Assembly: GCA_029061155.1 (NCBI GenBank)
Contig: JAIDSQ010000151.1
Coordinates: 1-60,499 of the forward strand
Direction of reading: 5' to 3'
Source: Clostridia bacterium
GTDB lineage: Bacteria > Bacillota > Clostridia > Christensenellales > Borkfalkiaceae
Length of the DNA stretch: 60,499 nt
Part shown: piece by piece, positions 25,947-56,593 of the stretch
Layout of the letters: each line of letters begins with the position of its first letter
Position numbering within the stretch: position 1 is the first letter of the stretch
The notes under the pieces: model-generated
What the model was told of the DNA's origin: nothing
Databases searched by the model: none
The model's input: the letters and a program-made list of their open reading frames with translations, nothing else
Program-made: the position numbers and the translations under genes

Positions 25947-25968
25947 CAAAAAAGGGCGCAAAGCGCCC
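25947..25968 (-). terminator. Riboswitch expression-platform terminator
   Basis: On the minus strand, gggcgctttgcgccc followed by TTTTTT. Confidence 0.75.
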
Positions 25969-25975
25969 ATCCTTT

Positions 25976-26016: not shown

Positions 26017-26027
26017 TCGTTTATCTG

Positions 26028-26056
26028 AATATACCATTAATTTAAGTCAATGTCAA
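26028..26056 (-). promoter_or_regulatory. Promoter of the riboswitch-yhhQ unit (TTGACA-17 nt-TATATT)
   Basis: On the minus strand, TTGACA (26051-56), a 17-nt spacer, then TATATT (26028-33), about 12 nt before the aptamer. Confidence 0.65.
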
Positions 26057-30465: not shown

Positions 30466-30468
30466 AAA

Positions 30469-35043: not shown

Positions 35044-36926
35044 CTGTTGTCCTCCTTAACGGGAATAACGACGGTTACGCGCGTTCCCTTGCCCTTATTA
35101 CTTTGTATTTCAACTTCCGCACCAAGAAGTTGTTTAAACCTCTCGCACGAATTTTTTATCCCCACTCCGCTTTGCGGCTGCCCGACATCAAAACCTATAC
35201 CGTTGTCCGCAATTTCTACTTTTACCGCGTTTTCGATACGCTCGCTCGAAATTTTTATATGGCCGCCCTTTACAGACTGCGTGTCCGCATATTTTACCGC
35301 GTTTTCCACAAAAGGCTGCAGGGAAAGCGACGGTACGGAAAAATTCCTTTCGTTTAGGTCTAACAGCAAATTCAACGCTCCGTCCGCACGCAGATTTTCA
35401 AGGTCGAAATAATTGAGCACGTTTTGTATTTCCGCATTAAATGCAATCAAGTCCCCGCCCTCCGACGCGTCAATATTTGAACGCAGATGCCGTGCAAAAT
35501 TCTGCAGCGCTACGTCGCCCTCTCCCAAATCCTTATGATACCGTGATTGAATTGCGGTAAGCGAATTGAAAATGAAATGCGGTTTTATCTGTGCCGCAAG
35601 CGTGCGCAGCTTTGTCCGTTCGACTTCGCGTTCAAGCTCGTTCATACGGATAAGCTTTCTTGCAAGATTGTATAGCCGTAAAAACGCCACTACGCTTTGG
35701 GCAAAGATAACGAGAGCAAGCAAGCCCGCAAAGATATATTCCATACCGAACGCAAGCAGTCCCGCGCCGTCTATGATTTCAAAAGTCAAAATGCAGATTG
35801 TAAGAAGATATATCAACAAATAAACAGTTTTGAATTTGGGCTGAATTTTCTTGCTTGCCGCCAGATTATACAGCGGAAACAGAGAAACAAACAGAAATAT
35901 TATTGCGGGAATAACGGTATAAACCGTTCCGTACAGTGCGCCGTATGCAATTGCCGACACCCCGCCTGCCGCCGCATAGGCAATCAAAAAATTTTTATTA
36001 AGACCGTCGCTCAGCTTTAATATATGTACGACAAATACCGCCGCGGTGAGTATGCCCGTAATCAGCGCGGGAATACATACCGCGCCGTAGCCGTAAAGCC
36101 CTATGGCTTTGGTCACGTCCTTACTGAAAAAGAAATGCAGGCACAGCGTTCCTATAAGAACGGGCAGGGTAAAATCTCTGTCGTAACGCATAAAGCCGAG
36201 CGTCATTATAAGAGCCGCGAAGAAAGTACCGGCAACAAGTCCGAGCATAACGACTACGAACCTTTCTATAAAAACCCAGTATGCCGACGGAGTCATTCTC
36301 TGACTGAGGCTCGGCGCGTGCGTAAGCCCTCCCGTTGCCGTATAGCCCGTCTCTATTACTATCGTTATGTCGCCGCCGTCCGAAATGCAATAGTCCACCC
36401 TCTCGGCGTTGCCCGAAGAAGTTTCACTGCCGTCCTTTGAAACGGTGCCGCTGACCGAACAGAGTTTACCGTTTACGAACATACGCAGTGCGACAACGGA
36501 GTTATCGGCAAAGCACGTAACGACTTCACCCGCAGGAAAATTTTTAACCGTCAGCCGGTATGAGGCAAAACCCGAGCGCGGAAGTTTTTCCCCGCCGACG
36601 GTTAACCCCGTCCACCTGCCGGGTACGGAAAGATATCCGTCGTTTTCCCCTTCGCCGCCGTCGGTTATTATCCAACGGTTGTAAAAAAATTCCCACTCGC
36701 CCGAAAGCGTGCGCGCGGTAAGTCTGCGGCTGCGGTTCAAATCTATTCCGCCGTAATCGACTGCGCCTTGAAAAACGCGCGGGGTATCATAAATTTCCTG
36801 ATAAAACACATTGAACGTGAAGATTGCGGCGACGAAAACGCAATAAAAGATGACTAACGAAAGAAATACGGAAAATGATTTAACCGAAATTTTATCTTTA
36901 AAAAGCCTTGCCGCCATAATCTTCAC
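35040..36926 (-). CDS. Sensor histidine kinase, paralog of 28600-30465
   Basis: 628 aa with the same architecture (SGEWEFFYNRWIITDG, KPHFIFNSLTAIQ). 4-nt overlap with its response regulator. Confidence 0.8.
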   Translation of the reverse strand: MKIMAARLFKDKISVKSFSVFLSLVIFYCVFVAAIFTFNVFYQEIYDTPRVFQGAVDYGGIDLNRSRRLTARTLSGEWEFFYNRWIITDGGEGENDGYLSVPGRWTGLTVGGEKLPRSGFASYRLTVKNFPAGEVVTCFADNSVVALRMFVNGKLCSVSGTVSKDGSETSSGNAERVDYCISDGGDITIVIETGYTATGGLTHAPSLSQRMTPSAYWVFIERFVVVMLGLVAGTFFAALIMTLGFMRYDRDFTLPVLIGTLCLHFFFSKDVTKAIGLYGYGAVCIPALITGILTAAVFVVHILKLSDGLNKNFLIAYAAAGGVSAIAYGALYGTVYTVIPAIIFLFVSLFPLYNLAASKKIQPKFKTVYLLIYLLTICILTFEIIDGAGLLAFGMEYIFAGLLALVIFAQSVVAFLRLYNLARKLIRMNELEREVERTKLRTLAAQIKPHFIFNSLTAIQSRYHKDLGEGDVALQNFARHLRSNIDASEGGDLIAFNAEIQNVLNYFDLENLRADGALNLLLDLNERNFSVPSLSLQPFVENAVKYADTQSVKGGHIKISSERIENAVKVEIADNGIGFDVGQPQSGVGIKNSCERFKQLLGAEVEIQSNKGKGTRVTVVIPVKEDNS

Positions 36927-37090
36927 CGTTCGTAGAAACTATTTGTATTTTATCATTTTCACCTCTTTATTTCAAGCAAAAGAATATTCCCGTCGACCAT
37001 TAATCTTTTGGCAAAACCTTCCGTTTTAACGCTTTTTTTACGGTGCCTTTGTTATAATGCAGAAAATTGTTATTACAAAAAGGAGATTTT

Positions 37091-38269
37091 ATGAAAGGCA
37101 AGTTTTTTTTAAGTTTAGTATGTGCTGCTGCCGTTTGCTTTACTGCGGCAGGCTTGGCGGGCTGTGCAGGTAACAACGACAGCGACAACACGGCGGAACC
37201 TCCCACCGAAGGCTTGGAATACACCCTCAACGACGACGGCAAAAGCTACAGCGTGACAGGCATAGGTTCGGCAACCGATACAAAAATCGTTATTTCTGCA
37301 GAGTACGAAGGAAAGCCCGTAACGGATATCGGCAAGTCGGCATTTGCGGAAAATCAAAGCATTACCAGCGTTACCGTCCCCGACAGCGTAACGGTTATAA
37401 AAACCAGCGCTTTTGCGGACTGCTCTTCTTTGAAAGAAGTTAAACTTTCCTACGGGCTTGAGGAACTGTGGCAGAGCGTTTTCTATAATTGCAGTGCGCT
37501 TGAGAACGTAGTTTTACCGGACAGCCTTATGTCTGTCGGCGCAGGCTGTTTCTCCGACTCCGACGGCAGCAAACTGAAAAACTTCCGTTACACCGAGCAG
37601 GAAGGCGTACTGTACGTGGGTACGGCGCGCAACCCCTATCACGCTCTCGTTGGTATGGCGACTAAGGGCGCCACGACCGCTTTCACCGTACATAAGGACA
37701 CTAAAGTTATTGCCACCGGCGCGTTCGAAAACAATCGCAATACTTTGCAGAATATTTTTTTCCCGCAGGAACTGACCGGAATAAACGTGCCCCGCTCTTT
37801 ATTCAACAATCTGTTAAGAACAGGCAAATTCAATGTTAATTCGGCGAACGGCTATTATTTGGGCACTGCGCCCCAATCGGGCAACAAAGGCAATCCGTAC
37901 GTAGCGCTTATCGACGCCGCTTCTGCCGGGTTTGCACTTAAAGACGGAGTAAAAATCATCGCCGGCGACGGACTTAGAGCTAATACACAAAACAGCTTTG
38001 CCACGCAAACCGAAATAGTTATTCCCGACGGCATTGACAGTATCGGCGAATACGCCTTTTTAGGATTTGACAAGCTTGAAAAAATTACTCTCCCGTCAAG
38101 CCTCACCATTCTGTCCCGCCACTTATTCGACAAGTGCTCCGCGCTTACGGATATTACATTTAAAGGCACGAAAGCGCAGTGGAACGCAATTAAAAAATCG
38201 TCAAATTGGGACGTGAATACTGCCGACTACACAATTCACTGCACCGACGGCGATATCGCAAAAGCATAA
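37091..38269 (+). CDS. BspA-type leucine-rich-repeat lipoprotein
   Basis: Start set at MKGKFF, with AGGAG upstream. Lipobox LAGC. LRR_5-like units (SAFA.N.S.TSVT.PDSVT.I..SAF..C). Confidence 0.8.
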   Translation: MKGKFFLSLVCAAAVCFTAAGLAGCAGNNDSDNTAEPPTEGLEYTLNDDGKSYSVTGIGSATDTKIVISAEYEGKPVTDIGKSAFAENQSITSVTVPDSVTVIKTSAFADCSSLKEVKLSYGLEELWQSVFYNCSALENVVLPDSLMSVGAGCFSDSDGSKLKNFRYTEQEGVLYVGTARNPYHALVGMATKGATTAFTVHKDTKVIATGAFENNRNTLQNIFFPQELTGINVPRSLFNNLLRTGKFNVNSANGYYLGTAPQSGNKGNPYVALIDAASAGFALKDGVKIIAGDGLRANTQNSFATQTEIVIPDGIDSIGEYAFLGFDKLEKITLPSSLTILSRHLFDKCSALTDITFKGTKAQWNAIKKSSNWDVNTADYTIHCTDGDIAKA

Positions 38270-38302
38270 ATTTTAATTACGCCGCCACATATACTAACTA
38301 AT

Positions 38303-38331
38303 AAAGCCGCAGTTTGTAAAACTGCGGCTTT
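38303..38331. terminator. Bidirectional intrinsic terminator
   Basis: aaagccgcagtt-tgtaa-aactgcggcttt. Confidence 0.8.
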
Positions 38332-38338
38332 ATTATCA

Positions 38339-39076
38339 TCACTTATCTAATTTAGAATATTGCTCGTCCGATACAGGCTCCAACCATTCGTTAGAAGTGT
38401 TTACGCCGGGGCACTCTACGGCAATGTGAGTAAACCAGCTGTCCGCCGCCGCGCCGTGCCAATGCTTTACGCCGACAGAGATATATACAACGTCGCCAGG
38501 TTTTAACGCCTGCGCGGGTTTCCCCCATTCCTGATACCAGCCGCATCCGTCGGTACACAAAAGAATTTGCCCGCCTCCTTTCTCGGCTTTATGAATATGC
38601 CAGTTGTTGCGGCACTTAGGCTCGAAAGTTACGTTTGCCATAAACACCGTTTCTTTGGGATTCGTAAGCGGTTTTAAGTAAGAGTTGCCGATAAAATATT
38701 TTGCATACGCCGTGTTGGGTTCACCGAGTCCGAACAGTCCGCCGAACTTACCGTCGTCGTCTTTATAAACTTCTTTCGCCATACGGAAGGCAGCCCAGGC
38801 ATTGGGCCACCCCGCGTAAAATGCAACGTGGGTTAAACGCTCCGCCATTTCCGTTTTGGTTACGCCGTTTGCCTTTGCCGTTTGCAAATGATATTGAAAA
38901 GAACTGTCTATAAGCCCTTTCGACACAAGTGTTGTTACCGTAAGCATAGAGCGGGTTTTAAGAGAAAGCGCGTCGCCCGACCAGACCTCTCCGAATAATA
39001 CGTCGTCGTTAAGCTGTGCAAATTTAGGGGCAAATTCCCCGAGAGAATCGCGTCCTGCCGTCTGTTTGATTTTCAT
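38339..39076 (-). CDS. Carboxymuconolactone decarboxylase (CMD/AhpD-like) domain fused to a cupin domain
   Basis: 245 aa. The N-terminal half (LTHVAFYAGWPNAWAA) is CMD-like. The C-terminal half (WHIH...GDVVYISVGVKHWHGA) is cupin-like. Confidence 0.7.
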   Translation of the reverse strand: MKIKQTAGRDSLGEFAPKFAQLNDDVLFGEVWSGDALSLKTRSMLTVTTLVSKGLIDSSFQYHLQTAKANGVTKTEMAERLTHVAFYAGWPNAWAAFRMAKEVYKDDDGKFGGLFGLGEPNTAYAKYFIGNSYLKPLTNPKETVFMANVTFEPKCRNNWHIHKAEKGGGQILLCTDGCGWYQEWGKPAQALKPGDVVYISVGVKHWHGAAADSWFTHIAVECPGVNTSNEWLEPVSDEQYSKLDK

Positions 39077-39086
39077 AAATTACTCC

Positions 39087-39416
39087 TTATTTTCTTATAA
39101 ATTTTCTATCGCGTTCGGGCGCGCTGTCGTCCGAAACGTATCTTTCGACCTTCATGTGCAAATCGTACTTTTCGCGCAATGCAACGATTTGCTTCATTAA
39201 CGGTAAACCGTGATGAACGTCGAGAGCGTTCTGGTCTTGCCAACTGTCTATCAAAAGCACACTTTCGCTATCGTCAATTGGCAGAAAATACTCGTACCGC
39301 AGATTGCCATTCTCGTTTCGGATAGCCTGCACTAATCCCGACGAAATCATTTCCTTTGCAAATTTAACCGCATTGCCGTTCTGACCGCCGTAATAAATAT
39401 TGACCGTAATTGCCAT
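39087..39416 (-). CDS. ABM-domain (antibiotic-biosynthesis-monooxygenase-like) protein
   Basis: 109 aa with ferredoxin-like ABM length and pattern (YEYF...D.W.DQ.ALD.H). Confidence 0.6.
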   Translation of the reverse strand: MAITVNIYYGGQNGNAVKFAKEMISSGLVQAIRNENGNLRYEYFLPIDDSESVLLIDSWQDQNALDVHHGLPLMKQIVALREKYDLHMKVERYVSDDSAPERDRKFIRK

Positions 39417-39426
39417 AATCGTTTAC

Positions 39427-40953
39427 CTAATTCATTTGTCCGATAAGAGTGCCGACGTTATTACCGCTTATACGCTCACCAGATTTCCAATTTGCCGTAG
39501 GGGCTAAGCTATGCAAGTTGGTTGCACTCGAGCCCATAGGACTGCTTGCCGAAGTGCAGAACGGAATTATCGTCTTGCCCGAAAAATCGTAACTTTCAAG
39601 GAACGTATAAATAATTTTGGGCGCTTGACCGTGCCATATAGGGTAACCTATAAATATGACGTCGTACTGTTCTATGTTATAAACGCTTCCGCTGATTTCG
39701 GGGCGGGCGGAACTGTCCGCCTGTTCTCTGTCGGCTCTGCAATTTGTATAATATTTTAAGTCGTCTGCGGTGTACGGAACGGCAGGCGTTATCCTGTAAA
39801 GGAACGAATTGCTTACCTGACTTTGTACTGATTCCGCAACGCCTTTCGTCGTATCCGTACACGAGAAATATGCAATCAGAACTTTTGTATCGTCGGGCGT
39901 TGCGGACGTACCCGCATACACAAGCTGCACATCTCGGTTGCCGTAATTCCACATAGACGAGCTTTTTTCGATAGCGTTCCATTCCATTTCCATCCCCGCG
40001 TAGTTAATCTTCGTAATCGTGCTTTCGTTAATAAATGAAATGCCGATTTTCGTAACCGACTTCGGTATATTTAATTCGGTTATTCCTCTCGTTCTCTGGA
40101 AGGAACGCGCTTCCAGTACCTTTACCCCGTCGGGAATGTTAGGATTGCTTGCACCGCGCACGAGCGTTTGCGTTGCACTTTCTATCAGGTGTCCGTTTTC
40201 GCTGCGGTAAGTAGTATTGCCGCTTGCAACCGTAAAGCTTATAACCGAGCAGTTATTGAACGCACTGTTGCCGATAGCCGTCACTCCCTTTGGAATAGTG
40301 ATATTTTTAAGCGCCGAGCAAGCAGAGAACGCGTTGTTTCCGATAGTTGTTAAAGCGCTGTTAGCCCCGACATATACCACACCCAATTGTCTGCAACCGT
40401 AAAAAGTATTCTGTCCTATTTCCGTAATTGTATCGGGAATTGTAACAGAAGTAAAGGCTTTTTGAGCAAAAGCGCCCGTACCGTGATGACCCTGAATTTT
40501 TGTTACGGGCAACCCTTCGTGTTCGGCGGGAATAACGACAATAGTTTCTTCTCCCACGTCCGTAACCGTATAGGTATTGCCCTCTTTTTCAAACGTAAGA
40601 CTTGCCGTGCTGTCTGGCAACTGGGCTTCCGCTTCCCACCCCGCATAAAGCGTAATATTGTCATTTACCCTGTCGGTATCGAAGTTCCACTCGGTATCGT
40701 TCTCTTTAAACCAACCCGTAAGATAGTATCCTTCTTTTATAGGCGTTTGAGGACGGACCGCTGGATTGCCTTCGCGTATCCTTTGGCTTTCAACCGCACT
40801 GCCGCCGCGGCTGTCGAAAGTTACGGTATAGTATGTTCCCTTATCTTCACCGCCCCCGCCATTGGCGTCCGTATTGCCGTTGCAGCCGGTAAATGCAAAG
40901 AGCAAACACATTATGCTGGCAATAAGAATGTAAAATATATTTTTACTTTTCAT
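39427..40953 (-). CDS. Lipoprotein: Listeria-Bacteroides repeat plus BspA-type LRR plus C-terminal flavodoxin-like domain
   Basis: 508 aa, lipobox FTGC. YTVTFDSRGGS...GYYLTGWF...ITLYAGW repeat, LRR_5 units, and the C-terminus VLIAYFSCTDTTKGVAE...FIGYPIWHGQAPKII..FLE...GKTIIPFCTS. Confidence 0.8.
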   Translation of the reverse strand: MKSKNIFYILIASIMCLLFAFTGCNGNTDANGGGGEDKGTYYTVTFDSRGGSAVESQRIREGNPAVRPQTPIKEGYYLTGWFKENDTEWNFDTDRVNDNITLYAGWEAEAQLPDSTASLTFEKEGNTYTVTDVGEETIVVIPAEHEGLPVTKIQGHHGTGAFAQKAFTSVTIPDTITEIGQNTFYGCRQLGVVYVGANSALTTIGNNAFSACSALKNITIPKGVTAIGNSAFNNCSVISFTVASGNTTYRSENGHLIESATQTLVRGASNPNIPDGVKVLEARSFQRTRGITELNIPKSVTKIGISFINESTITKINYAGMEMEWNAIEKSSSMWNYGNRDVQLVYAGTSATPDDTKVLIAYFSCTDTTKGVAESVQSQVSNSFLYRITPAVPYTADDLKYYTNCRADREQADSSARPEISGSVYNIEQYDVIFIGYPIWHGQAPKIIYTFLESYDFSGKTIIPFCTSASSPMGSSATNLHSLAPTANWKSGERISGNNVGTLIGQMN

Positions 40954-40974
40954 AATGCTTCTCCTGAATGTTTT

Positions 40975-41517
40975 TTACTTCTTTCCGAACGACATACATT
41001 TACCGATTACCGCACCCGTTTTCAGATACTGATAAGTAGGCATTTCAAACAACACAGGTTTCAGTTTGTCGTAGTCAATTTTTCCGTCATCACGCAAAAT
41101 CTCTTCATTCGCATAGGTGTTTGATATTGTCAAGATGAAGTTATCAAAACCTTTCGTTTCGTAATTATCCTCGACAACACACTCCATAGAAAGCGGCGAC
41201 TTTGCGATAATAGGTGCACCCTTTACCCCCGTTTCAAAACCGAAAACGTCCGACTTATCAACCTTCATTCCGCTTACGCAACCGACGTAATCTGCTTTAT
41301 CCAAAAGTGCTTCGTCTACGATATTTACCGAAAGCACTTTGTTTTGCTTGATTCCCGCATTGATGTAATGGGGCTTTGCAAGGCTGACCATAATATGGTC
41401 GTGTCCCATAATTCCCAAGTGCCCTACGAGCGTCCAAGTGGGTTTACCGTCCCAGAACGTGCCGACAACGACAAGCGGCGTGGGATACAGCGCCAGAACC
41501 GAGCCCAAATTTTTCAT
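40975..41517 (-). CDS. Flavin reductase family protein (FMN-binding split barrel)
   Basis: 180 aa, LYPTP.V.VGT...P....V.H.G pattern, no signal peptide. Confidence 0.7.
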   Translation of the reverse strand: MKNLGSVLALYPTPLVVVGTFWDGKPTWTLVGHLGIMGHDHIMVSLAKPHYINAGIKQNKVLSVNIVDEALLDKADYVGCVSGMKVDKSDVFGFETGVKGAPIIAKSPLSMECVVEDNYETKGFDNFILTISNTYANEEILRDDGKIDYDKLKPVLFEMPTYQYLKTGAVIGKCMSFGKK

Positions 41518-41527
41518 ATATTACTCC

Positions 41528-41737
41528 TTAATTCTTTTTAATTTCGTGTATCAGGTAATCAATTTGCTGTATTGATTTTTCCTGTTCGTGAACGGCGTCC
41601 AATATGCGATATCTGCTCTTTTTCAGAACGTCAATTTGCCTTTCTATGTTTCCGCCGCTCGCATTAAATTTTATTACTTCGCTTTCCGTCAGGCCTATTT
41701 CAGTCAAGTATTGTGTTAAACTTTCTCCGTATTGCAT
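41528..41737 (-). CDS. Small hypothetical helical protein (69 aa)
   Basis: Start set at MQYGESL. The longer 147-aa track ORF would overlap the upstream DUF4405 gene extensively. Confidence 0.4.
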   Translation of the reverse strand: MQYGESLTQYLTEIGLTESEVIKFNASGGNIERQIDVLKKSRYRILDAVHEQEKSIQQIDYLIHEIKKN

Positions 41738-42429
41738 AGTACACCCTTCTTCTTTTTTGATAAAATTTGTAAGCCTTTGTTTGAGTAATAGCCTAATGCC
41801 CCGAACAGGCAAATCACGCAAACGTAGTCGAACAAAAACTTCATTACGGATTCGCCGTATTGCAGGAATTTGAAATGTGTAGTTAAGAACATTTCTTCCC
41901 ACATCGCTCTCTGCACGAATACCACAATTCCGTAAACGGCAAGCCCCAAAAACACCGCTCTCAAAATCCACTTAACTGCAATTCCCGCTTTATCAGACAA
42001 CTTTATTCTTTTCGCCAAGCCGATAAATAATGAGAAATGAAGTCCCAGATGCAGAGACATAAATATGAAAGTCCACATCGTCGCAAACAAGTGTAGCTGT
42101 CTGCCCGTCATTATGTCGCCGTTTATATTCAGCGGCAAAAAGATTTCGGCGGATATGAGCATTGCACTTGCAATATTACAAGCCATTAATACCCATAAAA
42201 GGATATTGACAACGAGCTTATAAATTCGGGTAGCCGTGTACTTGCCTTTGAACAAATTTTTATACCAACGCAAATTCAAGCTGTTATGAATAAGAAAAAG
42301 TACTAATACGCTGATACCCATCCACTCATGCTGCGTTTCACCGAACAGGTGATACCCCATTAAACATATCAGCAAAGCGGTCATAGCCAAGTCAATTAAA
42401 ATCTTGACTGCAAGTAATGTCTTTTTCAT
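41716..42429 (-). CDS. DUF4405-family integral membrane protein
   Basis: 237 aa; the opening LIDL.MT.LLI.LMGYHL.GE..HEW.GI..LVLF.IHN.LN..WYKNLFKGKYT is typical of DUF4405. His residues lie in the TM helices. Confidence 0.7.
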   Translation of the reverse strand: MKKTLLAVKILIDLAMTALLICLMGYHLFGETQHEWMGISVLVLFLIHNSLNLRWYKNLFKGKYTATRIYKLVVNILLWVLMACNIASAMLISAEIFLPLNINGDIMTGRQLHLFATMWTFIFMSLHLGLHFSLFIGLAKRIKLSDKAGIAVKWILRAVFLGLAVYGIVVFVQRAMWEEMFLTTHFKFLQYGESVMKFLFDYVCVICLFGALGYYSNKGLQILSKKKKGVLCNTEKV

Positions 42430-43859
42430 TGCGTTACACCGTTTCGGGCAAGCCAGCCGGCTACGTCAGAAGAAAGCGAACTCCCGCCCGAATAATGAAT
42501 AGATAAACCTTCTGTGAGCGGCGAATTGGGTGCGAGCTTTGCAATAGCCGTAAGGCTCTGTCCGAATCTGCCGCCGCCGTGCGAACAGAACGGCATAATG
42601 GTTTTGCCCGATAAATCGTATTCTTCCAGAAAAGATGCTATAGGCATAGGGATTGACGCCCACCAATTCGGATAACCTAAAATTACCGTATCGTATTCTT
42701 CGATGTTATCTATCTTATTTTTGATTTCAGGTCTTGCCTGCGCCTTTTGGTCGCGCTGTGCCTGATCAAGTACGGTATTGTAATTTGTCGAATAAGGCTT
42801 GACAAGCTCTATTTCAAAGAGATATGCGCCAGTTTGTCTTTGAATTTCTCTTGCAACTCCGCGTGTATTTCCACCCCAGGAGAAGTATACAATAAGTATC
42901 TTTCCGCCCGTTGCGGCGTGGAGTCCTCCGCCCGTTACTACGTTTCCGACAACCGCACTGCCGTTTCTTACAAGGCGAAGCCCTACGGCAAAACTAACGC
43001 TCGTTGCGGCAAGCGACGCCCTGTATGCGCTTCTCGTATGCTTGCCGAAGTCGTTCCAACCGCCGCCGCGATTGACGCGCAAAGTACCCGTACTTGCGCC
43101 CGTCGGATCGGTCTGCTCTTCCGTCGAATACTCGCCGTAATAATCCCAACACCACTCTCCGACGTTACCATGCATATTGTATAAGCCCCATTTATTGGGC
43201 GAAAAACTGTTTACCGCAACGGTAGTTTGACGGTATAAGCCCGGCTTTGTTTCGAGCGCACCCTGATTGAAGTAGTTATCTTCGATGCCGTAAGGGTAAT
43301 GGCCGTAAAAGTTGCAAGTATCAGCGCCAGGCACTTTCTCGGTATTGAACGGCGTGTACGTTCCCGCACGGCACGCAAATTCCCATTCGGCTTCGGTAGG
43401 TAATCTGTATCCGTCCGCTTGCCTGTTCCAAGTTACGTTTTCGCCTTCTATCGTATAAACGGGGGTAATATTTTCCGCTTCACTTCTTGCATTGCAGTAA
43501 CGCAAAGCGTCGTACCACGAAATGTTTTCTACAGGTAAATTTTCTCCTTTGAAATTGCTCGGATTGCTGTTCATGACCGAAGTATATTCCGCTTGCGAAA
43601 CCTCATAGGGACTGATATAAAAATCGCTTACCGTTACGGTGTGCTTTGTTTCGTCATCTCCGCGCCATTCTTCACTCTCGGAACTTCCCATAGAAAAGGT
43701 CCCGCCGTTGATTTTAACCATACCCTGAGCATTTGTTACAGGCGGCGCATCTCCGTCGCCGTTACCGCCTATCCACTCGTCAGGCGCATTTTGACCGCAA
43801 CCCGCAAAACACAATATACACAATATTAATGTTAAAAATATACCGAATATTTTTTTCAC
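42426..43859 (-). CDS. Lipoprotein: FGE/SUMF1-type (sulfatase-modifying-factor fold) domain fused to a C-terminal flavodoxin-like domain
   Basis: Start set at the GTG at 43859, with AAGGAG 7 nt upstream, giving (M)KKIFGIFLTLILCILCFAGC. The FGE-like block includes ISWYDA..YCN and RV.RGGGW...RSAYR...GLRLVR. The flavodoxin block includes ILIVYFSWGGNT and LGYPNWW. Confidence 0.75.
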   Translation of the reverse strand: MKKIFGIFLTLILCILCFAGCGQNAPDEWIGGNGDGDAPPVTNAQGMVKINGGTFSMGSSESEEWRGDDETKHTVTVSDFYISPYEVSQAEYTSVMNSNPSNFKGENLPVENISWYDALRYCNARSEAENITPVYTIEGENVTWNRQADGYRLPTEAEWEFACRAGTYTPFNTEKVPGADTCNFYGHYPYGIEDNYFNQGALETKPGLYRQTTVAVNSFSPNKWGLYNMHGNVGEWCWDYYGEYSTEEQTDPTGASTGTLRVNRGGGWNDFGKHTRSAYRASLAATSVSFAVGLRLVRNGSAVVGNVVTGGGLHAATGGKILIVYFSWGGNTRGVAREIQRQTGAYLFEIELVKPYSTNYNTVLDQAQRDQKAQARPEIKNKIDNIEEYDTVILGYPNWWASIPMPIASFLEEYDLSGKTIMPFCSHGGGRFGQSLTAIAKLAPNSPLTEGLSIHYSGGSSLSSDVAGWLARNGVTQ

Positions 43860-43863
43860 CGGT

Positions 43864-44472
43864 TTACTCCTTGTTAAACCCAAGTCCCGCAACATAGCTG
43901 TCTATAGAGCTTTGAGATGCACTGCCCGAAAGTTTTGTACCGTCTAGCCAAGTGGCTTTGCTTGCCGAACCGTGCAAATTTTTTGCGCTGTTGCCAACGC
44001 CGCTTCCGCCCGAAGTACAGAACGGAATTATCGTCTTGCCCTCAAAGTCATAGCTTTCAAGGAAGGTATAAATAATCTTCGGCGCTTCCGCCCACCAAAT
44101 GGGATAACCGAGAAATACTATATCGTACCCGTCCATATTTTGCACGCTGCCGCTGATTTCAGGACGCGCCGAGCTGTCGTTTTGTTCTTTGGTCGAGCGG
44201 CTGTCTCTATTGCCGTAATTTAAGTCCGCCGAAGTATAAGGCTGTGCAGGCGTAATTGCGTACAGTGTACCGCCAGTAGACACCGCTATTTTTTCGGCAA
44301 CGCCCTTTGTTGTGTTCGTGCAAGAAAAGTATGCAACAAGCACTTTACCATCCGTGCCTTCGGGTATTTTATCCGTATTTCCGTCTTCTGTGCAACCGAC
44401 AAAACCAAAACATATACAAAGTATTGTGGCAATTCCTAAAAGTACTGAAATGAAGGTTTTCTTATTTCTCAT
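43864..44472 (-). CDS. Flavodoxin-like lipoprotein
   Basis: 202 aa, signal peptide with lipobox FVGC, VLVAYFSCTNTTKGVAE...FLGYPIWWAEAPKII. Confidence 0.8.
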   Translation of the reverse strand: MRNKKTFISVLLGIATILCICFGFVGCTEDGNTDKIPEGTDGKVLVAYFSCTNTTKGVAEKIAVSTGGTLYAITPAQPYTSADLNYGNRDSRSTKEQNDSSARPEISGSVQNMDGYDIVFLGYPIWWAEAPKIIYTFLESYDFEGKTIIPFCTSGGSGVGNSAKNLHGSASKATWLDGTKLSGSASQSSIDSYVAGLGFNKE

Positions 44473-44563
44473 GCAAAACTCCTTTTACAAAAAAACAGTG
44501 CGCAAAAACCTTTTCGGTTCTTACACACTAATTATACTTGATTTGCATTATTATGTAAAATAC

Positions 44564-45460
44564 TTATTTTTTATCGTTTATCATAACTGATTTGCATTTT
44601 ATAAAATCTATAAACTTTAACACGCAAGCTGACACGATTTGATTTTTCTTCCATACAAGCACGCTCGTCTGTTCTATTTTCGGATAGAGCGGACGGAAAT
44701 TTAATTCAGGATGATTGTAAAGTTGTACCGCACCGTCTATCGTTACTGCACAGCCCATTCCTTTGGATACGAGCATAGCCGCATTGTACAAAAGGTTTAC
44801 CGTAAGATAGATATTCTTTTCGTTATAATACTCTCCGAACCAGGACGAAAACATCGATTGGTTAACGGCGCGGTTGCTTATGAAAATTTTTCGGTCTTTC
44901 AGATCTTCCGCCGTAACGTATTGTTTTTTGCACAGGGGGCATTTCGACGGAACTATAACTCCCCAGGTATCTTTTACGGGCAGGCGGATAAATTCATATT
45001 TTGAAAAGTCTGTAGGTTCAAGCAAAATTCCTATATCGAGCAATCCCTTATCAAGCTGTTCTTTCGTCCCGTCCGCATTGCCTGAAATTATTTCAAACCG
45101 CACGTCGGGATAGTCTTCGCGGAACTCGTTTATAAGATCGGCTAAATACGAGCTCGCCGCCGTTTCGCCCATACCGATTGAGATTACGCCGCTTAAAGAA
45201 GTAAGCCCGTTTGCAAATTCCTGTTCTGTCTTTTCGGTTAACTCGATAATTTCCTGCGCCTTTTGGCGAAGATATAAACCCTCGTCCGTAAGCGTTATAT
45301 TGCGTTTACCGCGAATAAAGAGTTTTGCACCAAGCTCCTCTTCAAGTTGCATAAGCTGACGGGAAAGAGCGGGTTGAGATATATGCAATATTTCCGCCGC
45401 TTTGGTGATGTTTTCTTCCCTTGCAACAATGAGAAAGTATTTCAATACTCTGTTTTCCAT
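44564..45460 (-). CDS. LysR-family transcriptional regulator
   Basis: 298 aa, N-terminal HTH (L.YFL.VAREENITKAAE.LHISQPALSRQL..LEEELG..LF.R). Confidence 0.9.
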   Translation of the reverse strand: MENRVLKYFLIVAREENITKAAEILHISQPALSRQLMQLEEELGAKLFIRGKRNITLTDEGLYLRQKAQEIIELTEKTEQEFANGLTSLSGVISIGMGETAASSYLADLINEFREDYPDVRFEIISGNADGTKEQLDKGLLDIGILLEPTDFSKYEFIRLPVKDTWGVIVPSKCPLCKKQYVTAEDLKDRKIFISNRAVNQSMFSSWFGEYYNEKNIYLTVNLLYNAAMLVSKGMGCAVTIDGAVQLYNHPELNFRPLYPKIEQTSVLVWKKNQIVSACVLKFIDFIKCKSVMINDKK

Positions 45461-45547
45461 AAATACCCCTTTTGTATGATGCTGCCGTTATTATGCATAT
45501 AGATTATAACATAAACATCACGGTGTTGCAACGGACTATTTGCTTTT

Positions 45548-45700
45548 TTATTTTTTATTGCCCTGCATCTCAGTCTTTTCCTGTTTTTCGCGTTCTTCGT
45601 TTTTTTGGATAAGCCGTTGAATAAATAACTTGTCCTCTTCGGTAAGAAGGGTTTTAACGTCTTTTTCTGCCTGTTTCCGTAAATATTTTTTTATATTCAT
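45548..45700 (-). CDS. Possible small ORF (50 aa, charged, helical)
   Basis: ATG..TAA ORF: MNIKKYLRKQAEKDVKTLLTEEDKLFIQRLIQKNEEREKQEKTEMQGNKK. Weak RBS and no homology recognised. Confidence 0.25.
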   Translation of the reverse strand: MNIKKYLRKQAEKDVKTLLTEEDKLFIQRLIQKNEEREKQEKTEMQGNKK

Positions 45701-45950
45701 TTGCAAATATCCCAACCTTCAGTCGCACTTATGATTGACTTTTTTCTTTTGTAAGAATGTGGTTGCAACCCCGAACTTGTCATGAAATGGGTTGGGCACG
45801 AGTTTGACGCGGACGTCAAGACTTCGCGCGTGGACAGGGGCTATACAACCTATTCGCAGGAGTACATCCTGCAAGAAATTAACAAAATAGACTATGAACT
45901 GTAAATGACGCACAAACACACCTGTTTTGGGCTGAAATCGGGCAAAAAGC

Positions 45951-45971
45951 ACTTCCCAATTACTTCCCAAA
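45951..45971 (+). repeat. Tandem decamer ACTTCCCAA(T/A)
   Basis: acttcccaatt followed by acttcccaaa, just before hairpin 45981-46012. Compare the tandem at 50120-50141. Confidence 0.6.
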
Positions 45972-45980
45972 CATAACAAA

Positions 45981-46012
45981 ACGGGAGAAATTTTGTGAAT
46001 TCCTCCCGTTTT
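45981..46012. terminator. Hairpin with flanking A/T runs at the left edge of the AT-rich islet
   Basis: acgggagaa-attttgtga-attcctcccgt followed by ttt. Confidence 0.55.
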
Positions 46013-46180
46013 GATGCGTGTATTGACCAAAACTCCTCTTTTTAGTGGGTATTAAGATAGGCAGTTGAACAAAAAGCCTTTTTTTCAAATACTGCAAAAA
46101 ACAGTCTTATAGCTTATAATCTAGTTTCTTTTATACTTTTTCAAATTTATTGATTCGACAAAATGCTATGCGGAAAACAA

Positions 46181-47116
46181 TTAAAGCCATTCGGGCAAAG
46201 TAGATAGACTTATCAGTCTTTGCCTTTGCTCATCATCTTCTTCTCTCAATGCAAATTGTGATAACTTTAAAATAATATGTTTCAACTTTTCAAAAGTTTC
46301 TTTATTATATTTTATTGAACCGGAATATAATTGATTAAGTAATGCCATTTCCTTTCTTATAAATATTGATGGGATTACCCAATCGGATATATCTTCCCAT
46401 TCATCAATTAAACCATTTTTCCTTTTCACCGCCGTCAAAGCTTTATCACAATGTCCTTTGCAACAAGCATACGCATCAACATATTCATTGCTATTTAAAT
46501 TTTCCAATAAAACTATTATGGCTTTATTATCATGCAAATGCTCTTTAAGTAAGTCTTTACCGCAATATTCACACAACAAAGGCTCATATTTATCAAAAAT
46601 AATTGACGGCTCATTTTTTCGTGTTTTTGCCAATTCTTTTTTATAGCTCTCAGGGAAAAAGCGTTTAATTATACCATTCTTTTTTGCTTTAATAAGTTCA
46701 GTTTCAATTCTCTCGTTACTAAATATCTCAATTTTACGCCCTTTCTTTTTAAACGCATCTAATTTATTATTAAGCCCCGAAGAAGGTAGCGTGGAGTAAA
46801 ACCCAATAAACCCATCAACGCTATGTTGCTCCATTCTATCACTAATATTCTCTTCGTCTACAGAATTAACAGCTTGCCCAGAATGAGCTTTGTGTTTACA
46901 GCTTATCAACCATTTAAAATCTGCAGAAGATAACGCACCAAATTGATGCTCTACGGCAATCAAATCTTTGCCGTCATCTGCGCCCCTATTGGGCTCCGAA
47001 ACAATTTCAAAATGCAACACTTCCGAAAAAAATTCTCTTGCAAACAATTCAAAAGAATCTTGATCGCCATTTCCGGTATTAGCAGGCGGAATTTCCTTAA
47101 AATCTAATAAAGCCAT
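46181..47116 (-). CDS. Mrr-like (PD-(D/E)xK) restriction-endonuclease-fold N-terminal domain fused to an uncharacterised Cys-rich C-terminal domain
   Basis: 311 aa. GADDGKDLIAVEH...WLISCKHKAHSG...VDGFIGFYSTLPSSG follows the Mrr_cat layout. The C-terminal half carries CEYCGK...CCKGHC. AT-rich. Confidence 0.6.
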   Translation of the reverse strand: MALLDFKEIPPANTGNGDQDSFELFAREFFSEVLHFEIVSEPNRGADDGKDLIAVEHQFGALSSADFKWLISCKHKAHSGQAVNSVDEENISDRMEQHSVDGFIGFYSTLPSSGLNNKLDAFKKKGRKIEIFSNERIETELIKAKKNGIIKRFFPESYKKELAKTRKNEPSIIFDKYEPLLCEYCGKDLLKEHLHDNKAIIVLLENLNSNEYVDAYACCKGHCDKALTAVKRKNGLIDEWEDISDWVIPSIFIRKEMALLNQLYSGSIKYNKETFEKLKHIILKLSQFALREEDDEQRQRLISLSTLPEWL

Positions 47117-47174
47117 ATTTTATTTCTCCTTAATTTTTTTCAACATACGGCACAACATCTTTAATTACAATATT

Positions 47175-49745
47175 TTATTTCGTGTCAGATAAATAAGCTT
47201 CCAGCATAATTATATGCCTAACCTCTAACTCGTTTATAAAGTCTTCCATGAAATCAAAATCAATTTGACCGTCTTTTGTGGGTAACTGAATTTTGTCGTT
47301 TTTTATCTTCTCCCAAGAACACATATTTTCATATCCAAACTTCTTATTTAAGAAACAGAGGGCATTTGCTAAAAATAGCCCTTGTCTATCGGATATAACA
47401 AACTTCGGTTTTAATGAAAATACACGTGCGTGTGTAACCATTTTATAATTGAAATTGCGGTAAAAAGCAAAACCGAACATATCTACGGTAATTGTTTTTG
47501 TTTCGAAAACTTTAGCCGTAATATCTGTTTTACCTAAAATCCCGTTATTTGTTAATCCTGCAGTTATTACATAATCGCCGCATCCGTTTATGTGTGTTTT
47601 TTGTATATCAAAATCCCCATTGCTGCTTGTAAACAATTCTTCCAATTCATATTCTCCCCACTTAACACTTTGTAGCTTTTCATTAAGTTTAGTAGATATT
47701 CCGCCTAGGCTGTCATCCTCTTGATTATAACCCTTCAATACGGAAGAAACTTCCCACGAAAGATAATCGCTTACAGTTTTTTTAAAATCTTCAAGCGTCG
47801 GTTTAGTGTCTATCGGGGCGACTTGATTCCAGTCTGCGCCGTTTTCGGGATCAATATTTCCTTCGTAATATTCGTTTTCAGTAAAAATATTCAGTTTAGA
47901 TTTTCCGAAACGCACCAAATCCACTATTTCTTGGTAACGCTCTTTCGCTCTGTCAGTATCTCTCAAATTACAACTTGCTTTTTTACGGTTTGTTCTCGTA
48001 TATCCGTCGTTAGAAAAATCAATAAATTTGACCGTATCGTCTTTTTGGTGAGTTTCTCCTACGCGGAAAACATATATATTTGGATGAACGCTTGACTTGC
48101 CTATAAACAAGTCCTCAGGCATTTTTATACTTGCAAGCAAAGTGTTGTGCTTCAATATTTTTTTGTTGTATTCAATTGCTTTGCCCGAGCCCGCCGAGTT
48201 CTGTATGATAATTGCAGCATAGCCCTTATTCATCATAGAAAGAGCTCGCTCGACAAATATCATTCCCTTGCCTTCTGATGAATAAGGGGGATTAAGAACA
48301 AATGCCGTTGCCGGGAACTTTTTGTCTGTGTCGCCAAATCCGTAATTACCGTCAAAATCTTTTAACGAGTCTTTGTTCAAAATGTTTGAGCTACCGTCAC
48401 CCATCAAAATCATATTAAGTATCGCAAGCATATATACGCTTGGAAGAATTTCTAATCCAAGCAGTTGATTAGCTTTAATCGCGGCCGATTTTTTTGCAAA
48501 TTCATCGGGCGATTTTATTTTATTCTTAGCATCAATAAGCATTTCGTTCATCGATGCAACAAGAAGACCCGCCGAACCCGTAGCAAAGTCCCACACATAA
48601 GAATCTTTGTCTATGCGCGCAAGCTTTGCCAAAAGTGTAGCTATGTAAGACGGCGTTAAAACAACATCATTTAGCTTGTCTTGTGAAAAGCCAAGCCAAT
48701 TATACATTTCGTTAAACAGTTTACCAGTAAAGTCAGTTGTTAAGCCTATTTTATAGTAAATGCCCAAATCGTCTACAATCTTTGTAAATACTCGCTTTAA
48801 TTGACTTTCGCCGTTTTCCACCTTATTTATATTTTCATTAGTAAGCGTATTTTCAAGTGTACGAACAATTAAATCCTTCTTTGTTTGAGGTATCTTTTTT
48901 TCCTTTAGAAAACCTTTAATTTTGCGCAAAATTATATCGCCGTCGCGGTTTCCGTCTTCGGTGGAAGATTTTAAATCTGACTTATCAAGAATTGGAACTT
49001 TATTTGGTATTCCAATTGTTGCAATAATCGACGCGGCAACAAGATAAACGCGGTCGTTTTCTCCAAGTCCTTTTTCATTTTGATATATGTCATTATTCAG
49101 TTTTACAAGGCTTGCGTCGATTTCGCGTTCACGCTGCTCTTTCAGTTTGTCAATTTCTTCTTGCGTTAATTGCAAGCGCTTAACTTTTTCAATAAACTCG
49201 TCAAAATTCTCTTTTTTGAGAAATGAAAAATCGCTATATTCTCCAACTTCTTGTCCTATACCAAAATTACTTTTAGATACAAAATATACACTGATTTTAT
49301 GTTGCAGTATTCCTCTTTCGTCTTTATAGCCAGTCATACCAATAGCAATAATGTCGGTATAACTTGTATAGTGCATAATAGCATTTGCGTAATGCACTGC
49401 GCCGTTTACAGCATATGAATTAATGTTTTTAAAGTCAGGAGTGTTCTTTGCTGTTTTATTTGCTACCTTTCCATCATCGTTTAATTTAATCAACTTATCC
49501 TTATAGCCTTTATATTCTATTAAAATAGGATAGTCAACTAAATTTTTGTCACGTAGTAATAGTTTAGCGTCAGGGCGATTGCCGCCAACTCCGCCATTTT
49601 TAGAAGCATAATCGTTGAGTGCTTGATCTATCGCTGTATTTAGCGATTCCTGTTCTAATTTGTAATCCAACCCGTATGATTTAAGCCATCCATTTGCTAA
49701 ATCAGCAATATTGGGCTCAACTGATTGAATAGTTGCTTTTGCCAT
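47175..49745 (-). CDS. Single-chain Type IIG-like restriction-modification-specificity enzyme (PD-ExK nuclease plus gamma-class N6-adenine methyltransferase plus one HsdS-type TRD)
   Basis: Start set at MAKATIQ, with AGGAG upstream. RPDAKLL...ILIEYKG is a PD..ExK motif, VWDFATGSAGLL is motif I, and VLNPPYS is motif IV. The C-terminal ~190 aa resembles a Type I S-subunit target-recognition domain. Confidence 0.7.
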   Translation of the reverse strand: MAKATIQSVEPNIADLANGWLKSYGLDYKLEQESLNTAIDQALNDYASKNGGVGGNRPDAKLLLRDKNLVDYPILIEYKGYKDKLIKLNDDGKVANKTAKNTPDFKNINSYAVNGAVHYANAIMHYTSYTDIIAIGMTGYKDERGILQHKISVYFVSKSNFGIGQEVGEYSDFSFLKKENFDEFIEKVKRLQLTQEEIDKLKEQREREIDASLVKLNNDIYQNEKGLGENDRVYLVAASIIATIGIPNKVPILDKSDLKSSTEDGNRDGDIILRKIKGFLKEKKIPQTKKDLIVRTLENTLTNENINKVENGESQLKRVFTKIVDDLGIYYKIGLTTDFTGKLFNEMYNWLGFSQDKLNDVVLTPSYIATLLAKLARIDKDSYVWDFATGSAGLLVASMNEMLIDAKNKIKSPDEFAKKSAAIKANQLLGLEILPSVYMLAILNMILMGDGSSNILNKDSLKDFDGNYGFGDTDKKFPATAFVLNPPYSSEGKGMIFVERALSMMNKGYAAIIIQNSAGSGKAIEYNKKILKHNTLLASIKMPEDLFIGKSSVHPNIYVFRVGETHQKDDTVKFIDFSNDGYTRTNRKKASCNLRDTDRAKERYQEIVDLVRFGKSKLNIFTENEYYEGNIDPENGADWNQVAPIDTKPTLEDFKKTVSDYLSWEVSSVLKGYNQEDDSLGGISTKLNEKLQSVKWGEYELEELFTSSNGDFDIQKTHINGCGDYVITAGLTNNGILGKTDITAKVFETKTITVDMFGFAFYRNFNYKMVTHARVFSLKPKFVISDRQGLFLANALCFLNKKFGYENMCSWEKIKNDKIQLPTKDGQIDFDFMEDFINELEVRHIIMLEAYLSDTK

Positions 49746-50090
49746 TTTCTGCACTCCTAAACACAAATTCGTATAATTATAATAACATAATTTCCGCAAA
49801 AATCATAGTTTTTCGACACATAGTTTCAAATAATATAACAAAATGTAACTTATCTATTGTTTTATGAAACTACATTCACGCATTTAGACGACTGAATTCT
49901 GTGAAAATGTCATAATTTTAGGACATTTTCAACATCCCAACACATTCAAGTCTGACAAGGAGGGGCATATAGGTCAGCTTCGCAAAGCTGTGTTGAACTA
50001 AAATTATCGTGCTATTTTTGGCATAAAAAAAGACCGACCGCGTAAATGTTACAAACTTACACGAGCGGTTTTTGCCCTTTTTTGCCTAAA

Positions 50091-56545: not shown

Positions 56546-56593
56546 CACCACAACACAAAAAACAATATGTGTCGGTTTCTGAAAAATTTTTAA
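56546..56593 (-). promoter_or_regulatory. Operator/promoter cassette copy 2
   Basis: caccacaacacaaaaaacaatatgtgtcggtttctgaaaaattttta, 52-99 nt upstream of the 55913-56494 start. Confidence 0.75.

Follow-up and report, generated by a model that had tools for sequence, protein, structure and literature searches.

Several described systems carry electrons from the cytoplasm to protein-bound cofactors on the outer side of the membrane. That of Listeria monocytogenes comprises the FMN_bind lipoprotein PplA, which holds covalent flavin mononucleotide (FMN), together with FmnB/ApbE and Ndh2, and its electrons travel via quinone and EetA/B, not via a cytochrome b. Clusters in which a DUF4405 membrane protein is encoded with exported, ApbE-flavinylated Flavodoxin_4 proteins have also been described; a purified DUF4405 protein from Oscillospiraceae (MBD5117352.1) gave haem b spectra, and an insert between beta-1 and alpha-1 in the Flavodoxin_4 domains associated with ApbE holds the flavinylated Ser/Thr, the flavinylated extracytosolic proteins being contrasted with unflavinylated cytosolic ones (Huang et al., mSystems 2024, PMC11334425, available here in excerpt). 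In Escherichia coli, MsrQ receives electrons from a cytosolic NADH oxidoreductase via bound FMN and hands them on to the periplasmic MsrP (PMC12525009, likewise available in excerpt). The locus considered here consists of nine genes at positions 38339-45460 of a 60,499-nucleotide stretch (contig JAIDSQ010000151.1, assembly GCA_029061155.1) of a Clostridia bacterium of the Borkfalkiaceae; this whole stretch is referred to as the window. Rather likely, it is an operon headed by LysR and encoding a module for transmembrane electron transfer that leads from the cytoplasm through a DUF4405 protein to surface flavodoxin lipoproteins, without ApbE-attached flavin. Judging from the available excerpts, the outline of such a module is already known (Huang et al., 2024, PMC11334425), so that an earlier, sequence-only reading of the window, which had proposed a flavin redox chain, was right in its idea, which is not new. 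The locus differs in the lack of a covalent flavin signature, a conserved partner protein in which a formylglycine-generating enzyme (FGE)-like domain is joined to a flavodoxin domain, and a linked cytoplasmic flavin reductase.

Like the PplA system, the locus would have a Gram-positive flavin lipoprotein as the last protein-bound carrier on the surface; it differs in that no ApbE was found at the locus and in that a DUF4405 cytochrome would stand in the place of quinone and EetA/B, and no FMN_bind, Ndh2-like or EetA/B-like families were found among the 50 window open reading frames (ORFs) scanned with Pfam. With the DUF4405/ApbE clusters, as far as the excerpts describe them, the window shares a membrane protein family of six transmembrane (TM) helices with conserved central histidines, a Flavodoxin_4 partner, Firmicutes/Clostridia hosts and the presumed direction of flow, whereas it has neither apbE nor the flavinylation insert, its exported flavodoxins being of the unflavinylated type. 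It also adds an FGE-like-flavodoxin protein, a Flavin_Reduct protein, a 69-aa protein resembling the tail of MerR proteins and a CMD-cupin fusion, none of which is mentioned in those excerpts (PMC11334425). The added conserved components were also absent from the available portions of the literature naming Flavodoxin_4/PF12682 or FGE-sulfatase with flavodoxin. The MsrPQ system follows the same logic (cytosolic oxidoreductase, haem b membrane protein, extracytoplasmic redox protein); unlike it, the window protein has no detectable similarity to MsrQ, the acceptor is a flavodoxin instead of the molybdoenzyme MsrP, and two b haems are implied here against the single one of MsrQ (PMC12525009, in excerpt).

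The proposed path would begin with a cytoplasmic flavoprotein, here presumably the 180-aa Flavin_Reduct protein (40975-41517, minus strand; PF01613 E=3e-14), which as candidate electron donor would take electrons from NAD(P)H and reduce the inner haem (His48/His127) of the 237-aa DUF4405-type six-TM membrane protein (41716-42429, minus strand; PF14358 in homologues), a putative di-haem b cytochrome. The outer haem (His34/His113) would in turn reduce non-covalent FMN of Flavodoxin_4 domains predicted to be lipid-anchored on the outer face of the membrane, a host with a single membrane being assumed. Three minus-strand genes encode such domains: a single-domain lipoprotein of 202 aa (43864-44472; PF12682 E=3e-57; NF005501 211 bits against a cut-off of 198), a middle lipoprotein with an FGE-sulfatase-like and a Flavodoxin_4 domain (ORF 42426-43895, 489 aa; likely 42426-43859, 477 aa; FGE-sulfatase E=2e-45, Flavodoxin_4 E=4e-25), and a lipoprotein of 508 aa (39427-40953; Flg_new E=2e-16, LRR_5 E=6e-27, PF12682 E=1.5e-43). 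The immediate partner of DUF4405 would most probably be the FGE-flavodoxin lipoprotein, since its gene overlaps the start of the DUF4405 gene and since elsewhere the two are fused through a seventh TM helix. The FGE-like module and the leucine-rich repeat (LRR) and Listeria-Bacteroides modules would hold or act on the terminal acceptor, candidates for which are soluble oxidants, electrophiles and molecules of the surface or the host; the presence of LRR and Listeria-Bacteroides modules on one of the surface proteins had been claimed before, and both (the Listeria-Bacteroides repeat Flg_new and BspA-type LRRs of LRR_5) lie on the 508-aa chain.

The association between DUF4405 and Flavodoxin_4 extends well beyond this genome. 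One genome per species was scanned, which gave 80 loci around DUF4405 relatives, ORFs were called in the related loci and searched with the window proteins and domains, and linkage was counted on 86 loci including the window. The related loci come from Lachnospiraceae, Oscillospiraceae, Christensenellales, Treponema, Brachyspira and 'Mollicutes' metagenome-assembled genomes (MAGs), the nearest ones from MAGs of uncultured Clostridia, 'Mollicutes' and Anaeroplasmataceae. A Flavodoxin_4 gene is present in 73/86 loci, in its lipobox form in 63/86, and lies within 300 bp of the DUF4405 gene in 54/86. Flavodoxin_4 genes have a density of 0.82/kb within 500 bp of DUF4405, which drops about 30-fold to 0.028/kb at a distance of 7-10 kb; of 160 such genes, 156 run in the direction of DUF4405. 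The same decay of density with distance was obtained for Flavin_Reduct, FGE-flavodoxin, CMD, cupin and 69-aa genes. The sequence-only reading had named the lack of conserved linkage as its refutation and, on the co-occurrence of DUF4405 with Flavodoxin_4, the outcome was thus strongly positive. The nine-gene order is identical in the closest locus, L001, where DUF4405 is 84% identical, which argues that the arrangement is not due to chance. A more distant locus, L002 (DUF4405 50% identical), keeps LysR, the flavodoxin fusions, DUF4405 and Flavin_Reduct with the fused modules swapped for an esterase and LRR, and fusions of LRR with Flavodoxin_4 recur in L001, L002, L006, L010 and L011. Reverse look-ups seeded on three FGE-flavodoxin homologues and two flavin reductases all landed beside DUF4405 or on a DUF4405 fusion (5/5), both loci reached from the flavin reductases (about 68% identity) containing DUF4405 and Flavodoxin_4. 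About half of the related loci have a LysR gene at most 7 kb away from DUF4405, and in 42 of 51 cases the two genes share a strand.

The DUF4405 protein of the window has 80 relatives in a database search; PF14358 is carried by most of those at 30-52% identity, and one bears a UniRef name beginning 'Flavinylation-'; a profile built from 55 relatives retrieves 5,657 representative proteins, and an exact look-up of the window protein in assemblies gave no match. Five histidines (His34, His48, His113, His127 and His131) are invariant in the 55-sequence alignment. The AlphaFold2 model (predicted local distance difference test, pLDDT, 91; predicted template-modelling score, pTM, 0.87) has six long helices and places His34 and His48 on the helix 31-51 (TM2) and His113 and His127 on the helix 106-130 (TM4), so that the histidines reported earlier in the TM helices turn out to form invariant pairs, each 14 residues apart. 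Pairs of histidines with this spacing on two helices are the classic signature of a stack of two b haems with bis-His ligation, known from cytochrome b and from proteins of the NOX/FRD type. The two termini together with loops 2 and 4 hold some 18 Lys/Arg residues and the remaining loops 2, a distribution by which both termini should be cytoplasmic. From the model and the positive-inside rule, an outer haem would thus be held by His34/His113 and an inner one by His48/His127. Haem b binding by the window protein is expected by analogy with the purified Oscillospiraceae homologue, the one member in which it was demonstrated. The most conserved stretch of the family, W55-Y56-x-x-L-F-x-G-K-Y-x-x-x-R68, falls on a predicted cytoplasmic loop and, speculatively, may be a docking or flavin site.

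Natural fusions join the same components in single chains. When 10 of the longest DUF4405 relatives were scanned with Pfam, 8 showed an extra domain after DUF4405 (Flavodoxin_4 alone in 5, FMN_bind in 1 and FGE-sulfatase in 2, one of these also with Flavodoxin_4 and the other with an additional MerR_1 domain at its N-terminus) and 2 showed none. In all five of the DUF4405-flavodoxin fusion sequences inspected, a Lys-rich stretch and a seventh hydrophobic helix separate the two domains, and the flavodoxin domain is of the type that bears the flavinylation motif. Additionally, 9 triple fusions of DUF4405, a TM helix, FGE and Flavodoxin_4 were found among the best 120 FGE-flavodoxin homologues; in the two that were inspected (P0141 and P0131) the flavodoxin is plain, without the flavinylation motif (FFTWGGNTKG and FFSWGGNTRG respectively). 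The seventh TM helix of the fusions occupies the place of the lipoprotein signal peptide in the window protein, a position to be expected if the C-terminus of DUF4405 is inside and the FGE-flavodoxin part outside. As the genes of FGE-flavodoxin and DUF4405 overlap in ATGA, the window pair appears to be the split form of the triple fusion. The chain P0368 (424 aa) combines MerR_1, DUF4405 and the start of FGE-sulfatase and is either a real fusion or a gene-calling or assembly artefact.

Other genes also cluster around DUF4405. Unbiased clustering of the neighbours gave LysR in 39 loci, aldo-keto reductase in 36, CMD/cupin in 35 and FMN_red in 17, followed by MerR, RibD_C and Fe-ADH in 16 loci each and DUF362 in 13, a set that suggests a regulon answering a redox-active or electrophilic compound. 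It could accordingly be argued that the locus is a LysR-controlled detoxification island in which the exported flavodoxins act alone, in flavin scavenging or binding or as WrbA-like quinone reductases with external reductants, DUF4405 merely sharing their regulon. The predominance of cytoplasmic detoxification enzymes (aldo-keto reductase, CMD/cupin, FMN_red, Fe-ADH, MerR) among the commonest other neighbours and the highly variable gene content around DUF4405 speak for such an island, which we nevertheless hold to be unlikely: many proteins join DUF4405 in a single chain with Flavodoxin_4, FMN_bind or FGE-flavodoxin, the Flavodoxin_4 genes are concentrated right beside DUF4405 rather than spread over the island, and the four-His, two-haem motif implies electron transfer.

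A transmembrane module could also be run backwards, the surface flavodoxins collecting external electrons and passing them through DUF4405 to the cytoplasmic flavoproteins. Sequence does not fix the direction, and low-potential flavodoxins could in principle donate. On the other hand, the flavin-based extracellular electron transfer (FLEET) of Listeria exports electrons, and flavin reductases normally run from NAD(P)H to flavin. The published relatives and analogues, namely the DUF4405/ApbE clusters (PMC11334425) and MsrQ (PMC12525009), are likewise described as electron exporters in the available excerpts, and by this analogy the flow is probably outward, its reversal being quite unlikely.

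The three flavodoxin domains of the proposed electron-transfer module are of a kind for which non-covalent FMN is documented. They score 192.8, 88.7 and 148.4 bits against Flavodoxin_4 (202-, 477- and 508-aa proteins respectively), far above the Pfam gathering score of 24, in keeping with the C-terminal flavodoxin-like domain ascribed to each of the three lipoproteins by the sequence-only reading. Among solved structures, the 202-aa protein scores best against PDB 3KLB (E=1.7e-50, whole domain covered), a Bacteroides fragilis Flavodoxin_4 structure that holds non-covalent FMN (Huang et al., PMC11334425, in excerpt). Its loops YFSCSGVTKA, GFPVWWYIAP and PFATSGGSG correspond to YFSCTNTTKG, GYPIWWAEAP and PFCTSGGSG in the 202-aa protein, to YFSCTDTTKG, GYPIWHGQAP and PFCTSASS in the 508-aa protein and to YFSWGGNTRG, GYPNWWASIP and PFCSHGGG in the FGE-flavodoxin protein; the PFCTS motif earlier taken to be common to all three thus holds for the 202- and 508-aa proteins, the middle one reading PFCSH. 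The loops of the FMN site (the phosphate loop after beta-1, the aromatic W-W/W-H pair and PF(C/A)(T/S)xGG) are therefore retained as in the FMN-bound structure, and from these motifs the exported domains would be loaded with FMN. Among the structural-genomics Flavodoxin_4 entries 3KLB, 4ICI and 4J8P, 3KLB shares these FMN-site loops with the 202-aa protein; unlike the latter, it is a chain of 162 residues in which the domain begins at residue 3, and so has no lipoprotein leader.

None of the three window domains has the flavinylation insert or motif after beta-1. An insert of the form D-x-x-[ST]-[SG]-[AP]-S is present in 43 Flavodoxin_4 proteins of the related loci (for example DVDAVTSPSV, DAVSSASL and DTVAGASRV), and 38/86 loci encode at least one domain with such a flavinylation-like motif. 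An ApbE hidden Markov model (HMM) built from 10 locus matches found the enzyme in 12 related loci (12/86) and nowhere in the 60.5-kb window, and no ApbE and no recognisable flavin transporter or exporter turned up when the remaining 40 ORFs of the window were scanned with Pfam. A 'GSAS' near the C-terminus of the 202-aa protein was rejected as a flavinylation site, being neither conserved in orthologues nor at the position of the insert. The published system could still apply unchanged if the window flavodoxins received covalent flavin from an ApbE whose gene lies in another part of the genome: the enzyme need not be cluster-encoded, the motif is present in 38 loci and ApbE in 12. This is very unlikely given that YFSCTNTTKG, YFSWGGNTRG and YFSCTDTTKG lack insert and motif, like the non-covalent 3KLB, that the 60-kb window holds no ApbE, and that 'plain' lipoprotein flavodoxins are the only ones in 30/86 loci, the window itself and the two nearest to it, L001 and L006, included. 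A third Flavodoxin_4 subtype occurs in L002, L010, L018, L022, L023, L035, L083 and L084, with an insert ...MPDNVD(D/N)STVVI(G/N)GETLGNTQY... after beta-1; this insert, homologous in position to the one for flavinylation, has no [SG]-A-S core and may thus be a degenerate or alternative site. Additionally, in L008 of a 'Mollicutes' MAG (8545-10738) the FGE-flavodoxin protein P0081 is 88% identical to that of the window with an adjacent DUF4405 at only 44%, and the same locus holds ApbE and a motif-bearing Flavodoxin_4, a mix which suggests that modules are exchanged between ApbE-dependent and ApbE-independent versions.

Signal peptides were judged by lipoprotein criteria read off the sequence, that is a charged n-region, an h-region and a Cys near residue 20-30. 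The leaders MRNKK...FVGC, MKK...FAGC and MKSK...FTGC each consist of a short Lys/Arg n-region, a hydrophobic core of 15-19 residues and a lipobox; the full signal peptides ahead of the lipobox Cys are MRNKKTFISVLLGIATILCICFGFVG in the 202-aa protein (FVGC), MKKIFGIFLTLILCILCFAG in the FGE-flavodoxin protein (FAGC) and MKSKNIFYILIASIMCLLFAFTG in the 508-aa protein (FTGC). The three lipobox-bearing products recognised earlier (202, 478 and 508 aa) are thereby upheld, with a correction to the middle one, since its likely start, GTG 43859, seven nt past an AAGGAG at the end of the upstream gene, gives 477 aa. The ATG of the 202-aa gene is preceded, seven nt ahead, by AAAGGAG. The lipobox Cys of the FGE-flavodoxin protein is invariant in 55/55 aligned homologues, and export and lipidation of the three flavodoxin-domain proteins are the predicted outcome. 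That the signal peptides are start-codon artefacts and the proteins cytoplasmic, a notion to which the over-extended first-ATG ORF of the middle gene lends itself, is extremely improbable, for the starts from which canonical n-h-lipobox peptides result have good ribosome-binding sites (RBS) ahead of them, the 55 homologues all keep the Cys, lipobox forms occur in 63 loci, a TM helix after a cytoplasmic C-terminus replaces the leader in the fusions, and Flg_new and LRR_5, both on the 508-aa chain, are cell-surface modules.

The partner that most distinguishes the locus is the middle lipoprotein. Its N-terminal two thirds are FGE-sulfatase-like (PF03781 156 bits, full-length model covered). The protein has 7,417 homologues at E<=1e-10, with identities of 61% or more throughout the best 120, and so large and strongly conserved a family points to a function under constraint. 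Among solved structures, the FGE-like domain is best matched by Treponema denticola TvpA (2Y3C), bacterial and human FGEs and PorK, the match to FGE chains in the PDB lying at E ~1e-18 to 1e-20. With members of the FGE-sulfatase fold (TvpA 2Y3C, PorK/GldK, PvdO) it has in common the scaffold motifs RLPTEAEWE, GNVxEW and RGG[GS]W; in contrast to FGE, it is without the two catalytic cysteines and is always followed by a flavodoxin domain, and in contrast to TvpA, a ligand-binding scaffold that is variable, it is strongly conserved. The Cys of GGSFLC in the FGE chain 6S07 (from Thermomonospora curvata, this Cys being the first of the two catalytic cysteines) aligns with a residue that the whole family shares, Asp282 of the window protein, and five residues further on stands a variable Thr/Met. 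A true formylglycine-generating enzyme was therefore rejected, the pair of catalytic copper-binding cysteines being missing. A more tentative proposal, possible although we would not count on it, is that DUF4405 and FGE-flavodoxin together form an unrecognised ApbE-independent extracytoplasmic oxidoreductase, common in gut Clostridia, spirochaetes and their relatives, in which the FGE-like domain, devoid of the cysteines, would serve as a new terminal module for catalysis or substrate capture driven by a non-covalent surface flavodoxin and the other flavodoxin lipoproteins (such as the LRR one) would be alternative heads on the same cytochrome.

On the cytoplasmic side, the Flavin_Reduct protein (PF01613), which we take to be unrelated to Fre, has no signal peptide. 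Its genes reach a density of 0.098/kb in the first 500 bp from DUF4405 and thin out to 0.003/kb at 7-10 kb, and it is this gene linkage, the sole support, that suggests the flavin reductase as donor. Other cytoplasmic flavoproteins may serve elsewhere: among the 57 complete loci (at least 5 kb on both sides of DUF4405), FMN_red is present in 11 and a leaderless Flavodoxin_4 in 19, at least one of the three donor types occurring in 36, and the electron donor is probably interchangeable between loci. The 69-aa protein (41528-41737, minus strand; conserved, predicted cytoplasmic, encoded between DUF4405 and the flavin reductase, with a counterpart at the corresponding place in L001) belongs to no Pfam or NCBIfam family and aligns with the C-terminal half of MerR_1-annotated proteins of 118-129 aa that follow LysR (L088 5834-6190, L089 6836-7225); MerR_1-like forms follow LysR in many related loci, and the copies of the window and L001, which lack the helix-turn-helix, now sit after DUF4405. 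The last two genes of the operon, both on the minus strand, encode a cytoplasmic ABM-domain protein of 109 aa (39087-39416; PF03992 E=1e-10) and a cytoplasmic CMD (PcaC-like)-cupin fusion of 245 aa (38339-39076; CMD E=3e-20, Cupin_2 E=3e-4), the cupin half of which resembles NF049940 with a score below the cut-off. Linkage of ABM to DUF4405 is confined to the closest relatives, with 3 such loci, and CMD and/or cupin genes are found in about 35 DUF4405 loci. Both are linked cytoplasmic genes without a demonstrated place in the chain, so that of the chain first proposed the core (cytoplasm, His-bearing membrane protein and surface flavodoxins) is supported by linkage, fusions and the published haem b homologue, while the ABM and CMD-cupin proteins are not borne out as its parts.

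Several results weigh against the electron-transfer reading. On the donor side, Flavin_Reduct lies within 6 kb of DUF4405 in only 15 of the 57 complete loci, 21 of the 57 have neither Flavin_Reduct, FMN_red nor a cytoplasmic Flavodoxin_4, and no DUF4405-Flavin_Reduct fusion was found among the best 120 flavin-reductase homologues. The window DUF4405 protein itself scores 17.4 bits against a Pfam gathering score of 26.7. Alignment of its profile by hhalign with E. coli MsrQ (probability 0.2), HyaC and YodB gave nothing significant, which reduces any relation to these proteins to functional analogy, and a Foldseek search of the model against the PDB returned no match at E<=0.001. On the outer side, Sec-type leaders imply export of an unfolded apoprotein, and the loading and retention of FMN outside the cell are left unexplained in a window without ApbE or a recognisable flavin exporter. 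Finally, the AlphaFold2 model of the FGE-flavodoxin protein is poor (pLDDT 60; 55 mutually too-similar homologues) and yields no interdomain geometry.

If the electron-transfer reading is true, covalent attachment is not obligatory for extracytoplasmic flavoproteins, and the delivery and retention of FMN become the question. Gut anaerobes have few known routes for redox chemistry outside the cytoplasm, and the known flavin-based ones need ApbE against loss of the flavin; the window and at least 29 related loci pair the DUF4405 cytochrome with exported flavodoxins that have no flavinylation site. Additionally, the family of FGE-like plus flavodoxin proteins, with more than 7,400 relatives, is a candidate new surface enzyme of abundant gut bacteria.

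As for the organisation of the locus, domains were assigned by Pfam and NCBIfam profile scans of the window ORFs. All nine genes lie on the minus strand, in agreement with the co-orientation described earlier, as LysR plus an eight-gene operon. The LysR, DUF4405 (identified via homologues with PF14358), flavin reductase, ABM and CMD-cupin genes then listed were all found again, and to that list the FGE-sulfatase-like domain of the middle lipoprotein and the 69-aa gene, both overlooked, have to be added. The LysR-family transcriptional regulator (44564-45460; 298 aa; HTH_1 E=3e-22, LysR_substrate E=9e-33) reached no NCBIfam equivalog cut-off. It is separated from the operon by a spacer of 91 nt, and the junctions downstream range from a 22-nt overlap to a gap of 21 nt, so tight that the eight genes look like one operon; in one of them the DUF4405 start overlaps the preceding FGE-flavodoxin stop codon (ATGA). 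In the spacer (44473-44563), the stretch 44496-44559 (minus strand) comprises TTTACA-17-TATAAT, which is a candidate operon promoter with 11/12 consensus positions and the best match of the region, and after it a terminator-like 15-bp hairpin with a T-run, all of these being consensus matches only. The spacer shares 89% identity with its counterpart in L001, where both promoter hexamers are unchanged. The hairpin and T-run sit between the -10 element and the RBS and, going by their sequence, could be a LysR terminator, a leader structure or an operator. An Rfam scan of 37000-47000 detected no riboswitch or other RNA family, and a sub-threshold small RNA match there (E=0.96) was dismissed.

Outside the cluster, the window carries ordinary chromosomal genes, among them the S10/spc ribosomal-protein operon and the genes of SecY, Adk, Map, EF-G and HisRS; no tRNA genes were found in it, and the single public sequencing run that holds the region is gut-metagenome DNA. 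Its ribosomal proteins, EF-G and SecY each stand alone when proteins are clustered at 90% identity, and the host is presumably an uncultured gut member of the Firmicutes (Bacillota). On one side, a 400-aa LRR_5 lipoprotein (37067-38269, plus strand) abuts the cluster, and two paralogous His_kinase (PF06580)/response-regulator pairs (28600-31251, plus strand; 34273-36926, minus strand) flank a BspA-type LRR protein of 940 aa (31310-34132); with these neighbours, the cluster sits in a patch of surface LRR proteins. On the other side, directly upstream of LysR, the stretch 46181-49799 (minus strand) has a GC content of 0.34-0.36 compared with about 0.45 elsewhere and looks like an inserted island; it holds an ORF of 311 aa without a Pfam family and a single-chain restriction-modification-type enzyme of 874 aa (N6_Mtase plus Methylase_S). 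An EFR1-like Flavodoxin_5 plus 4Fe-4S protein (26721-27497, minus strand) and a Vut_1 'vitamin uptake transporter' (25141-26037, minus strand) are encoded some 11 kb away from the cluster, with no link to it established. Near the end of the window, a stand-alone Condensation-domain protein of 402 aa (56590-57798, minus strand) adjoins a TetR gene.

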